Virus record (IMG/VR): IMGVR_UViG_2541047819_000005
Source of the DNA: a virus
Taxonomy: Duplodnaviria > Heunggongvirae > Uroviricota > Caudoviricetes
Reading direction: 5' to 3' (one strand)
DNA: 5,186 nucleotides
Part shown: positions 1,716 to 4,869 of the stretch, piece by piece
Position numbering within the stretch: the stretch's first letter is position 1
How the letters are laid out: every line of letters starts with the position of its first letter
Made by a program: the position numbers and the translations under genes
The notes under the pieces: generated by a model
What the model saw: the letters and a program-made list of their open reading frames with translations, nothing else
Told to the model about the DNA's origin: nothing
Database searches by the model: none

Positions 1716-2447
1716 ATGGATACTATAATCGCTTTTCTATCACTCGCTTTTTTCGTTGCTTTCTTCATCGGGTTAATCAAGCCATCACTGGTGCGAATGC
1801 CAAACCGCAAACGTGCAAGTGCGGTTTATCTCGGAGGAGGTTTTGTATTGAGCATAATTGGTTCAATACTCTATCCAACAGAAAAAAGCCAGCCAGTTGA
1901 TAAAACTGAAACATCAACCGTTGCAGAACACAAAGTCCAAAAAACATTCGAATATGGGGAAAAAACACTCAAGGAATATCGGAACGAGTCAAAGAAAACA
2001 CGACACGATATTGTGAATAGTTACATTGATTTTAAGGAAGTTCCAGCCACCGCGTCAGATGCGTTTTATGCCTGCATGAGTGAGTATACATTTACCAAAG
2101 ATGATGAGTTGAAACTCGGTGATGTTCTTGGGTGGTGCTTTAATGATTATGAAAATGACTCGAATTCACTAAACAATAAAATCAATCTTGATACATTTCA
2201 GAGTAATTTTAGTGGTTGGGATGGTTCTTATCGTCCATTGGAAAAACTAATTAAAGATAATATGAACGATGATTCATCTTATAAACATGTGTCAACGGTA
2301 TATCATCTGGTTTTGAATAAAGACCCGTACGCTATTGTGAAAACTACGTTTCGCGGTACTAATGCTTATGGTGGAGTGGTTAAGCAGACTATAGCTGCGC
2401 GCGTCGACATACGAACGGGAGAGGTTGTATCAATATTAGATAATTGA
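1716..2447 (+). CDS. Cargo gene 1: small integral membrane protein with two N-terminal TM helices and a C-terminal domain of about 190 aa of unknown function
   Basis: ATG at 1716 preceded by AAAGGA (1705-1710), spacer 5 nt. Two hydrophobic segments: TIIAFLSLAFFVAFFIGLI (res 3-21) and AVYLGGGFVLSIIGSILY (res 36-53), separated by a basic loop KPSLVRMPNRKRAS. AT-rich (a sampled line is about 37% GC). 243 aa, stop at 2445-2447. The ORF track's start at 1674 has no Shine-Dalgarno. Confidence 0.75.
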   Translation: MDTIIAFLSLAFFVAFFIGLIKPSLVRMPNRKRASAVYLGGGFVLSIIGSILYPTEKSQPVDKTETSTVAEHKVQKTFEYGEKTLKEYRNESKKTRHDIVNSYIDFKEVPATASDAFYACMSEYTFTKDDELKLGDVLGWCFNDYENDSNSLNNKINLDTFQSNFSGWDGSYRPLEKLIKDNMNDDSSYKHVSTVYHLVLNKDPYAIVKTTFRGTNAYGGVVKQTIAARVDIRTGEVVSILDN

Positions 2448-2512: not shown

Positions 2513-3448
2513 ATGGAATATCAACTGGATTTACAAGAGAATGCTATTGATAGTTTTAATGAAGCTTTAGCAAAGTATGAGTTAGGGCAGAGAGGAGAAT
2601 TGCGGCAATATAAATTTGCTATCTTGCATTTGTCACATTTTCTTGAGCTGGTGTTGAAGTTATATATTGTTACAGTAGATGAAAATTTACTGTATTCCGA
2701 TTGCTATAAACAAATAGCTACAAGAGCAAAGCGAGAATCAATCAGTCTTTTAGACGCATATAATAAAATTATCGAGGATGGCGTTGATTTAGGAAGGTTC
2801 ATTGAAGGGAAATCTAGGCCATATACGATAACCTTAGATCAGGCACTAAACTTTGCTAAGTGTGAGAAATGTGGCATAACTGGGGTTGATTTTGTAGATA
2901 TTGATTTTTGTAATGATATAGCTTGGATAAAGAATTTAAGAAATGATATTGAGCATTATCAATTCAGACTTACTCCTAAAGACGCGCGCTTGTGTATTGG
3001 ACGCCTAGTCCGGGGGGTAGCTGAGTTTATTGATATCTTCGATCTTTTTAATCTTGAAGATGAAGTCGGTGCAGATAACTTACAGATATTTCAAACTTTA
3101 GCTGATGAATACTCTCATAGGCTCTCTGAAGCCAAGAAAGAAGTTGAAGAAAGAGAGGCTGAAGCTTTTTATGGGGTTAGGCATAAATTTTATGAATTGG
3201 TCGATTGGAAAGTTTATGAATGTCCTGAGTGTTCTAACGACACAATGATTCCCTCTGATGAGTCTTCTACGGGTTACAAATGCACTTTTTGTCAGAATGA
3301 AGATAGTGATGATATTGATGTTGCTTGCGATTGTTGTGGTGCGCAGGCTCCCAGCAGCGAAATGAGCATTTGGCCAATGGATGATGGTGATGTTGAGTAT
3401 CGTTGTTACTACTGTTCAGGGCAGTATCAGGCAGATAAAGACTTTTAA
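2513..3448 (+). CDS. Cargo gene 2: predicted HEPN-like (Rx4H motif) helical domain protein with two C-terminal CxxC...CxxC zinc ribbons; candidate RNase-type effector
   Basis: ATG at 2513 preceded by AGGTGA (2501-2506). 311 aa. Motif R143-N-D-I-E-H148 (nt 2939-2956) fits the HEPN Rx4-6H signature, with the typical N after R. Acidic/basic coiled-coil-like segment EAKKEVEEREAEAF. Zinc ribbon 1: C237-x2-C240...C257-x2-C260 (nt 3221-3292). Zinc ribbon 2: C272/C274/C275...C298-x2-C301 (nt 3326-3415). Very AT-rich (a sampled line is about 27% GC). Upstream in-frame ATGs at 2468 and 2492 lack a Shine-Dalgarno, and 2468 lies inside the hairpin. Confidence 0.8.
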   Translation: MEYQLDLQENAIDSFNEALAKYELGQRGELRQYKFAILHLSHFLELVLKLYIVTVDENLLYSDCYKQIATRAKRESISLLDAYNKIIEDGVDLGRFIEGKSRPYTITLDQALNFAKCEKCGITGVDFVDIDFCNDIAWIKNLRNDIEHYQFRLTPKDARLCIGRLVRGVAEFIDIFDLFNLEDEVGADNLQIFQTLADEYSHRLSEAKKEVEEREAEAFYGVRHKFYELVDWKVYECPECSNDTMIPSDESSTGYKCTFCQNEDSDDIDVACDCCGAQAPSSEMSIWPMDDGDVEYRCYYCSGQYQADKDF

Positions 3449-3631: not shown

Positions 3632-3655
3632 AAAACCGCCCCATGAAGCGGGCGG
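3632..3655 (-). terminator. Hairpin plus T4 abutting cos; putative intrinsic terminator for minus-strand read-through (or structural part of the cos region)
   Basis: Plus strand reads AAAA-CCGCCC-catgaagc-GGGCGG. On the minus strand this is a 6-bp GC stem followed by TTTTAAT. It directly abuts the cos 19-mer. Confidence 0.4.
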
Positions 3656-3673
3656 GCGAGGCGGGGAAAGCAC
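3655..3673. other. cos: P2-type cohesive-end site (cos), 19-nt GGCGAGGCGGGGAAAGCAC, joined as in prophage or circular form
   Basis: Exact match to the 19-nt P2 cohesive-end sequence as I recall it from the literature. Position is consistent: about 160-180 bp from the stop of portal gene Q and adjacent to the variable locus. Confidence 0.7.
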
Positions 3674-3834: not shown

Positions 3835-4869
3835 TCAGCCGTTGTCAGTGTCCAGTGAGTAGTTTTTAAAGCGGATGACCTCCTGACCGAGCCAGCCGTT
3901 TATCTCGCGGATCCTGTCCTGTAACGGGATAAGCTCATTGCGGACAAAGACCTTTGCCACTTTCTCAATATCGCCCAGCGACCCGACGTTCTCCGGCTTG
4001 CCGCCCATCAACTGAAAGGGGATGCGGTGCGCGTCCAGCAGGTCAGCGGCGCTGGATTTTTTGATATTAAAAAAATCGTCCTTTGTCGCCACTTCACTGA
4101 GCGGGATAATTTTGATGCCGTCTGGCTTTCCCTGTGGGGCATAGAGAAACAGATTTTTAAAGTTATTGCGGCCTTTCGAATTAGCCATGTTTTCGCGGAG
4201 TGAGTCAATGTAATCGCGATCCTGCAATGCGTCGGTGATATACATGATGTATCCGGCATGAGCGCCGTTTTCGTAATACTTGCGGCGGAACAGCGTGGCC
4301 GACTCATTCAGCCAGGCAGAGTTAAGGGCGCTGAGATATTCCGGCAGGCCGTACAGCTCCTGATTAATATCCGGCTCCAGCAGGTGAAACACGGAGCCGG
4401 GCGTGAAAGGTGTCGGCTCGTTGAAGGACGGCACCCACCAGTAAACATCCTCTTCCACACCACGGCGGGTATATTTTGCCGGTGAGGTTTCCAGTCTGAT
4501 GACCTTACCGGTGGTGCTGTAACGCTTTTCCAGAAACGCATTACCGAACACCAGAAAATCCAGCACAAAGCGGCTGAAATCCTGCTGGGAAAGCCACGGG
4601 TGCGGAATAAACGTTGAAGCCAGAATATTACGTTTGACGTAAATCGGTGAGCTGTGATGTACGGCAGCACGCAGGCTTTTTGCCAGACCGGTAAAGCTGA
4701 CCGGTGGCTCATACCATCTGCCGTTACTGATGCACTCGACGTAATCCAGAATGTCACGGCGGTCGAGTACCGGCACCGGCTCACCAAAGGTGAATGCCTC
4801 CATTTTCGGGGCGCTGGCGGTCATTGTTTTCACCGCTGGCTGCGGTGTTTTCCCTTTTTTCTTGCTCAT
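3835..4869 (-). CDS. Q: Phage portal (capsid portal) protein, P2 gpQ
   Basis: 344-aa ORF. Sequence (MSKKKGKTPQPAVKTMTASAPKMEAFTFGEPVPVLDRRDILDYVECISNGRWYEPPVSF...) is near-identical to P2 gpQ as I recall it, and the 1035-bp length matches P2 Q. Shine-Dalgarno GGAG 8 nt upstream. The start overlaps the P stop (TGATG). Confidence 0.93.
   Translation of the reverse strand: MSKKKGKTPQPAVKTMTASAPKMEAFTFGEPVPVLDRRDILDYVECISNGRWYEPPVSFTGLAKSLRAAVHHSSPIYVKRNILASTFIPHPWLSQQDFSRFVLDFLVFGNAFLEKRYSTTGKVIRLETSPAKYTRRGVEEDVYWWVPSFNEPTPFTPGSVFHLLEPDINQELYGLPEYLSALNSAWLNESATLFRRKYYENGAHAGYIMYITDALQDRDYIDSLRENMANSKGRNNFKNLFLYAPQGKPDGIKIIPLSEVATKDDFFNIKKSSAADLLDAHRIPFQLMGGKPENVGSLGDIEKVAKVFVRNELIPLQDRIREINGWLGQEVIRFKNYSLDTDNG

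Follow-up and report, generated by a model that had tools for sequence, protein, structure and literature searches.

A Predicted Ortholog of Phage 186 Orf97 as a Candidate Envelope Exclusion Protein in a P2-like Prophage

Between the replication gene and the portal gene of a P2-like Escherichia coli prophage lies a gene for a small membrane protein, and the locus raises the question of what such a protein does and whether it acts alone or together with the gene that follows it. The DNA analysed here (the window, 5186 bp) is the right-hand end of a P2-like (Peduoviridae) E. coli prophage, running from gpA through cos to the portal gene, and along its entire length it is 98.5% identical to E. 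coli GN04171. A first-pass annotation had read the gene at 1716-2447 (gene 1) as a membrane protein that might be a superinfection-exclusion factor, or else the sensing or membrane-disrupting partner of the next gene (gene 2).

Identity of gene 1 and its phage 186 counterpart

The main features of the window are as follows.

55-834, + strand: replication endonuclease gpA, C-terminus
834-1286, + strand: DUF3850/ASCH protein, also with DUF7415
1286-1492, + strand: 68-aa hypothetical protein
1706-1710, + strand: Shine-Dalgarno-like AAGGA, read from the sequence, 5 nt before the ATG at 1716
1716-2447, + strand: gene 1 coding sequence, predicted phage 186 Orf97 ortholog (PHROG 3403), from RefSeq, BLASTP, PHROG and dN/dS
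2513-3448, + strand: gene 2, 311 aa, WP_004099450.1, from RefSeq, with a PADLOC PDC-S64 match (4e-17)
3655-3673, + strand: cos, the exact P2 19-nt cohesive-end sequence (DNA search, 0 mismatches, 0 expected by chance)
3835-4869, - strand: portal gene Q

The start of terminase gene P lies on the same strand as Q, opposite to gene 1. The 19-nt query used to locate cos is the P2 cohesive end of the P2 literature. Gene 1 had been described as lying next to cos, which is a loose statement, because cos is found ~1.2 kb downstream with gene 2 in between. The DUF3850/ASCH and 68-aa genes (834-1492) belong to the conserved backbone, being present in ~375 E. coli genomes, and are not variable cargo.

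Gene 1 occupies the same slot, from the replication gene to cos, as tin, old and the retrons Ec67 and Ec86, and like them it is AT-rich relative to the backbone. According to the title of a 1996 paper by Dodd and Egan, Ec67 and Ec86 reportedly replace DNA between cos and a terminator of a 186-related prophage. That paper is cited for a cos-proximal hotspot of foreign genes (PMC5694545), and the gpA-gpQ interval has been described as a P2-like hotspot that carries tin and old in P2 and many anti-phage systems elsewhere (PMC9122126). The locus table of the same study includes the exact four-gene locus with WP_004099447 and WP_004099450, labelled 'hypothetical', and gene 1 is not among the hotspot systems validated there by Rousset et al. 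2022 (PMC9122126). A 2026 paper on P2/P4 hotspots does not mention the gene. Of the 2251 genomes with a match to this window, 88 contain gene 1, a minority of P2-like prophages.

The interval 1716-2447 (+ strand) is a real 243-aa gene plus stop, not a chance ORF. The RefSeq coding sequence WP_004099447.1 covers the same 1716-2447 in the 98.5%-identical GN04171 prophage, and the ATG at 1716 is the start shared by the PHROG 3403 profile and all homologs. The ORF listing extends this frame to 1674-2447; the alternative start at 1674 (257 aa) was rejected, as it has no ribosome-binding site and the homologs stop short of it. The short minus-strand ORFs over gene 1 (1688-1810 and 1777-1968) found no support.

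A BLASTP comparison of gene 1 with phage 186 Orf97 (NP_052294.1) gave 77% identity over 243/243 aa without gaps (E = 6e-148), and the two genes are 74.5% identical as DNA (blastn, phage collection). The PHROG 3403 profile, labelled 'unknown function' in PHROGs, matches gene 1 from position 1 to 243 of 243 with E = 3e-146. The dN/dS ratio is 0.07 against 186 orf97 and 0.11-0.18 within E. coli, showing that gene 1 is under strong purifying selection, while its GC content is 38% vs. 46% for 186 orf97. A word search returned 159 homologs, nearly all of 243 aa, across Enterobacterales, and a profile search of 1.84 billion representatives extended the set to 2957 relatives, counted as cluster representatives. 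By these comparisons, gene 1 is almost certainly the ortholog of phage 186 Orf97.

The GenBank record of phage 186 carries a note on orf97 stating that 'expression from plasmid blocks 186 infection'. The same record lists orf97 second in the LexA-controlled operon p95-tum-t95a-orf97-t95b, with only a terminator and then cos beyond it. Orf97 equals the gene 1 product in length (243 aa), TM hairpin, basic loop, Cys pair and C-terminal signature, and both genes lie in the same orientation between replication gene A and cos/portal in Peduoviridae. The arrangement is shared more widely, as orf97 lies between gene A (or tum) and the portal gene Q in 11 of 16 Enterobacterales loci (L006-L021), at ~0.5 to 3.4 kb from the portal gene in the other Enterobacterales. 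However, the copy studied here lacks the p95 promoter, the LexA box and tum that accompany orf97 in 186; it sits to the right of a conserved boundary element, in the variable slot, whereas 186 orf97 sits to the left of it; and a further cargo gene separates it from cos, where 186 has none.

Through this 77%-identical, co-linear ortholog with a recorded block of infection, the superinfection-exclusion reading of the first-pass annotation gains support from sequence comparison. The reading preferred here, with a probability of roughly 0.6, is that gene 1 encodes an Orf97-type exclusion protein which would block infection at the envelope. No account of a mechanism turned up in full-text literature searches on orf97, 186 and superinfection exclusion. 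Thus, as judged from its homology, gene 1 is a new copy of a known and mechanistically unexplained phage-exclusion gene.

Predicted topology and fold

The product of gene 1 was divided into the following segments using Kyte-Doolittle hydropathy (19-residue windows), an alignment of 43 homologs and an AlphaFold2 (AF2) model.

1722-1778, + strand: TM helix 1, ~residues 3-21 (Kyte-Doolittle peak 2.69; AF2 helix 2-21)
1779-1820, + strand: basic loop, residues 22-35, predicted cytoplasmic (charge count +5/0)
1821-1877, + strand: TM helix 2, ~residues 36-54 (Kyte-Doolittle peak 1.81; AF2 helix 31-52)
1878-1949, + strand: variable linker, ~residues 55-78, probably disordered (pLDDT <50 at 57-72; alignment stretch of variable length and low conservation)
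1950-2204, + strand: helical subdomain, ~residues 79-163, HdeA-like predicted fold (Cys120 at nt 2073-2075, Cys141 at nt 2136-2138)
2205-2444, + strand: C-terminal alpha+beta subdomain, ~residues 164-243 (a single helix packed against a 4-stranded antiparallel sheet)

Hydropathy and charge count thus confirm the earlier description: a pair of hydrophobic helices enclosing a basic loop, with a large soluble domain after them. Only two residues precede TM helix 1, and ~189 residues follow TM helix 2. The loop KPSLVRMPNRKRASA between the helices contains 5 basic and 0 acidic residues. TM helix 1 ends in a conserved AF(I/V)xGLIKP motif, in which F16, G19, L20 and P23 are invariant among the 43 aligned homologs; in the loop, P23, V26, M28 and R31 are invariant in the same alignment, and K22, P29 and S35 nearly so. 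The loop is the best-conserved part of the N-terminal region, exceeding the TM helices themselves, and this high conservation suggests from the alignment that the anchor may do more than tether the protein.

In the soluble domain, Cys120 and Cys141 are invariant in the 43-homolog alignment and, in the AF2 model, each lies seven residues from a helix-loop-helix turn, on opposite sides of it. Among distant cluster representatives, both cysteines are present in 72, neither in 25 and a single one in 2. Such joint presence or absence is what a disulfide bond would produce, and disulfides form in the periplasm. The segments that precede the soluble module in its relatives are informative as well. 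In some relatives the module follows a lipoprotein signal peptide (e.g., LVGC, LAGC or VIAC) or an ordinary signal/anchor segment, and in others a cytoplasmic zinc ribbon with one TM helix. A lipobox or at least one hydrophobic segment precedes the module in 131 of the 150 best representatives, the rest of these 150 being mostly fragments or just under the threshold.

The N-terminal hairpin of the gene 1 type, recognised by the motif AF(I/V)xGLIKPS, is a mobile anchor in its own right. Its fusion partners in Bacillota and Bacteroidota are a pair of Lipoprotein_Ltp domains (3.5e-31), DUF4352, a ComEA-type HHH_3 domain and, in another case, a long region ending in an Orf97-type C-terminal alpha+beta domain, all of them extracytoplasmic. 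In these fusions (loci L025-L029, Bacillota and Bacteroidota, with matches at ~5001-5230), the loop motif outlasts the helices in conservation. Taken together, the loop charge, the covariation of the cysteines, the signals and anchors of the relatives and the hairpin fusions, all computational, support a periplasmic location of the soluble domain. The topology first proposed, with the loop in the cytoplasm and the C-terminal domain outside, is therefore backed by four independent computational lines.

The AF2 prediction, made with the 43-sequence alignment, reached a pLDDT of 84 overall and of 92 over residues 74-243, and it consists of the TM hairpin, the linker, a helical subdomain at ~residues 85-163 and an alpha+beta subdomain whose helix and sheet span ~residues 173-242. 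The alpha+beta subdomain resembles the cystatin/NTF2 fold in the model and is a widely distributed module that is also found alone. No enzyme fold is apparent in the model. Neither subdomain has a Pfam model, and gene 1 as a whole finds no match in Pfam, NCBIfam or PADLOC; a Pfam scan of ten distant relatives recognised only unrelated N-terminal domains (zinc ribbon, bPH_3) and left the shared module unmatched. The earlier statement that the soluble domain has no recognisable motif thus holds for these databases, but the 43-homolog alignment reveals a conserved signature, FSGWDGSYRPLEKLIK..MNDDSSYKH...FRGTNAYGG, in addition to the invariant Cys pair.

The predicted helical subdomain shows a weak likeness, at the level of the modelled fold only, to HdeA/HdeB/YmgD, Tai4 and Rap1a, which are small periplasmic all-helical proteins. 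Tai4 and Rap1a are T6SS amidase-immunity proteins. The sequence identity of gene 1 to this group is 5-16% with no profile match, and, unlike all of them, the helical subdomain of gene 1 is predicted to be membrane-tethered and fused to a second, alpha+beta subdomain. This fold similarity, weak as it is, is one of two points in favour of a different function, namely that gene 1 is a lysogenic-conversion envelope factor, either a tethered HdeA-like chaperone or stress protein, or a Tai4/Rap1a-like inhibitor of periplasmic toxins or peptidoglycan hydrolases. The other is that family members also occur outside prophage slots, i.e., next to integrases, next to ogr/gpD in Xenorhabdus and as an orphan between glnH and dps in Enterobacter asburiae. 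A conversion factor of either kind is nevertheless considered quite improbable, and exclusion at the envelope is kept as the preferred function.

In Xenorhabdus innexi (L018 4209-4836), the orf97 homolog lies at the other end of the P2-like element, by ogr and gpD, and a Gp49-like/HTH pair (HigB/HigA-type, toxin-antitoxin-like) is directly upstream of it.

Expression signals and the following gene

The segments flanking gene 1 contain three further features.

1493-1563, + strand: double-hairpin element, ~70 nt, left edge of the cargo slot (backbone homology ends at ~1563-1567)
1666-1715, + strand: leader homologous to the 186 t95a-orf97 leader (blastn to 186 starts at query 27 = 1666)
2457-2485, + strand: hairpin just past the gene 1 stop, no U-tract (-14.4 kcal/mol, z = -2.1; not called by the terminator scan)

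The stop codon of the upstream gene marks the start of the double-hairpin element, which consists of a 17-bp hairpin and a second small hairpin, with no U-tract. The backbone common to P2-like prophages that lack gene 1 runs to ~1563-1567, which is the end of this element, and the element is kept in 186 and at other loci (L002 5840-5912; L006, L009, L031). The element follows orf97 in 186 and its close relatives, whereas here it precedes gene 1; gene 1 has thus moved into the variable slot in this lineage. The segment that aligns with 186 extends upstream of the ATG by only ~50 bp, its left end falling in a degraded t95a terminator; the t95a hairpin has a fold energy of -24.1 kcal/mol in 186 vs. 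-16.2 here. The double-hairpin element could be a stabiliser of mRNA 3' ends or a recombination junction; Rfam and tRNA scans returned nothing significant, and the element has no Rfam family. The sequence at its 3' end (GCGAGGCG) is similar to that at the start of the cos 19-mer. The hairpin at 2457-2485 is at most a weak terminator, or none.

The window contains no Tum homolog, and a search for LexA boxes gave none close to gene 1: one-mismatch matches to CTGT-N8-ACAG occur only at 1235 and 4652, which is chance level. Gene 1 thus lies outside a LexA-repressed tum operon, a trait that belongs to the 186 operon and does not define the family. A sigma-70 scan called no promoter in 1493-1715, and the best candidates found by eye are weak (TTGCTA-17-TATGTG at ~1665-1693 and TTGAAA-18-TAACAA at ~1607-1636). 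Gene 1 may be reached by read-through transcription from the early operon, or it may have a weak promoter itself.

The timing of expression bears on who would benefit from the protein. In 186, orf97 belongs to the SOS-induced p95 operon together with the antirepressor gene tum and so is made at induction, not in stable lysogeny; orf97 directly follows the early replication gene A in several Enterobacterales loci (L012, L014 and L017), and no independent promoter was detected in the window. These points fit a role in which gene 1 serves the progeny of its own phage at lysis or induction, as T5 Llp does, by stopping virions from injecting into induced or lysed cells, instead of defending the lysogen. 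However, the SOS context has been lost in this prophage and gene 1 sits in a slot that usually carries lysogen-expressed defence genes. A service to the phage's own progeny is thus rather unlikely here, and it would in any case be the same envelope block with another beneficiary, i.e., a variant of the preferred exclusion reading.

The shared transcript of tum and orf97 in 186 has a second possible meaning, that gene 1 acts with Tum in prophage induction or antirepression. A study of the Salmonella BTP5 prophage describes tum and orf97 as genes that 'function as an antirepressor system' (PMC5322425). However, in the 186 record only the Tum products are given an antirepressor role, most of Orf97 is predicted to be periplasmic and so could not contact the CI repressor, and this copy and many others occur without tum. 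A joint action with Tum is extremely improbable for these reasons, and a block at the envelope is again the reading to be followed.

The most immediate alternative to a protein acting alone concerns gene 2. It encodes a protein with an R-x4-H motif (RNDIEH, residue 143), five CxxC motifs of C-terminal zinc ribbons; its PDC-S64 match is N-terminal, and a CARF-HEPN profile matches weakly. The two genes are adjacent and co-oriented, separated by 65 bp and similarly AT-rich (38% GC for gene 1, 37% for gene 2), and defence systems with TM partners occur in the same hotspot (PMC9122126). The locus could therefore be read as a two-gene abortive-infection system, with gene 1 as the membrane effector or sensor of a HEPN-like zinc-ribbon protein, on the strength of this arrangement and of the PDC-S64 match and R-x4-H motif.

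The distribution of the two genes argues against such a pairing. Of 5426 complete E. coli genomes, 88 carry gene 1 homologs, which are chromosomal in every case, whereas gene 2 occurs in a single one of the 5426 and accompanies gene 1 in 1 of its 88 genomes; a tblastn search of the phage collection with gene 2 returned no match. In sister E. coli prophages, homology ends at the gene 1 stop codon or within its last few dozen bases, and the place of gene 2 is taken by genes for proteins of 260 aa (L003 2559-3341), 218 aa (L004 2537-3193) and 224 aa (L005 2608-3282), which are unrelated to gene 2 and to each other. In 186, nothing follows orf97, which blocks infection by itself according to the GenBank record. 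In PADLOC naming, PDC-S candidates are single-gene candidates. Moreover, the C-terminal domain of gene 1 is predicted to be a folded periplasmic binding module, not a pore-former.

The occurrence of gene 1 without gene 2, and with unrelated neighbours in its place, shows that gene 2 is an independent cargo gene and not part of the function of gene 1. The partnership suggested by the first-pass annotation does not survive the absence of gene 2 from 87 of the 88 genomes and from phage 186, with other genes following elsewhere, and a joint abortive-infection system is very unlikely. By its motifs and profile matches, gene 2 looks like an independent HEPN-type single-gene defence candidate, and the two genes are to be regarded as separate test subjects. 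The 260-, 218- and 224-aa genes are themselves candidate hotspot cargo; their products have no Pfam or PADLOC match, and TM helices are predicted at the N-terminus of the 218-aa protein, with one at the C-terminus of the 260-aa protein.

Exclusion at the envelope

In the preferred exclusion reading, the N-terminal helical hairpin would anchor the gene 1 protein in the inner membrane, with the N-tail and the C-terminus outside and the loop in the cytoplasm, and the flexible linker would hold out into the periplasm a binding module of two subdomains, stabilised by a disulfide. On the basis of its homology to 186 Orf97, the protein would render the cell refractory to 186/P2-type phages, and it would do so alone, without gene 2. 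The lack of an enzymatic fold, together with a position at the periplasmic face of the inner membrane, makes binding or obstruction the most likely mechanism. The module may bind stoichiometrically either to a genome-delivery component of the incoming phage or to a host envelope component used by it, so that infection would be stopped at or just after adsorption. The block of infection by the ortholog is borrowed here from annotation, and the blocked step, the binding target and the timing of expression are inferred.

Several known exclusion proteins offer a functional and architectural comparison. T4 Imm and Sp, P1 Sim, P22 SieA, HK97 gp15, lactococcal Sie2009 and Ltp of Streptococcus thermophilus phage TP-J34 are small, encoded by phages or prophages and membrane-anchored, as gene 1 is predicted to be, and in all of them, as in the gene 1 model, the functional part is extracytoplasmic and has no enzymatic domain. 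Sim, Imm/Sp, Ltp and Sie2009 work by the same principle as that proposed for gene 1. The ortholog of gene 1 blocks infection alone, as envelope-acting exclusion proteins do, and for Ltp there is a further link in the Bacillota protein in which a gene 1-type GLIKP hairpin is fused to Ltp-family domains. However, no sequence or fold homology of gene 1 to Imm, Sp, Sim, SieA, gp15, Sie2009 or Ltp is detectable, and the likeness is one of function and architecture only. Within these bounds, gene 1 is an ordinary prophage membrane exclusion factor and not a new kind of system.

With this assignment, a 'hypothetical protein' of the P2 hotspot becomes a named gene with a phenotype recorded for its ortholog. 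The orf97 phenotype dates from the 1990s (1996) and was lost from annotation, so that RefSeq, Pfam, NCBIfam, PADLOC and PHROGs all give the function as unknown. As the periplasmic module is one of a large, uncurated family, a mechanism for Orf97 would annotate thousands of envelope proteins.

A broader and more tentative proposal, which we regard as unlikely on present comparisons, is that the ~3000 clusters of relatives (50% identity; Proteobacteria, Bacteroidota and Bacillota; no Pfam model) might form an envelope-tethered binding class that intercepts phage genome delivery, with Orf97 as its founding member. The parts exchanged within such a class would be the anchor (GLIKP hairpin, lipobox or zinc ribbon with TM helix), the HdeA-like subdomain and the cystatin/NTF2-like subdomain. 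The proposal jointly includes a shift of gene 1 from an SOS-induced operon to a constitutive defence slot; if it were true, a function of self-exclusion at induction would have been turned into lysogen defence in this prophage.

Two observations on relatives concern a further domain type. In Enterobacter asburiae TN152 (L015 5001-5732), an orf97 homolog with ~52% identity stands as an orphan between glnH and dps; neither gpA nor a portal gene lies within 5 kb of it, and it adjoins a divergent gene for a bPH_3-SHOCT protein. In the distant relative P0141, a bPH_3 domain is fused to the N-terminal side of the same TM-plus-soluble module. These cases suggest that the orf97-type module is recurrently associated with bPH domains.
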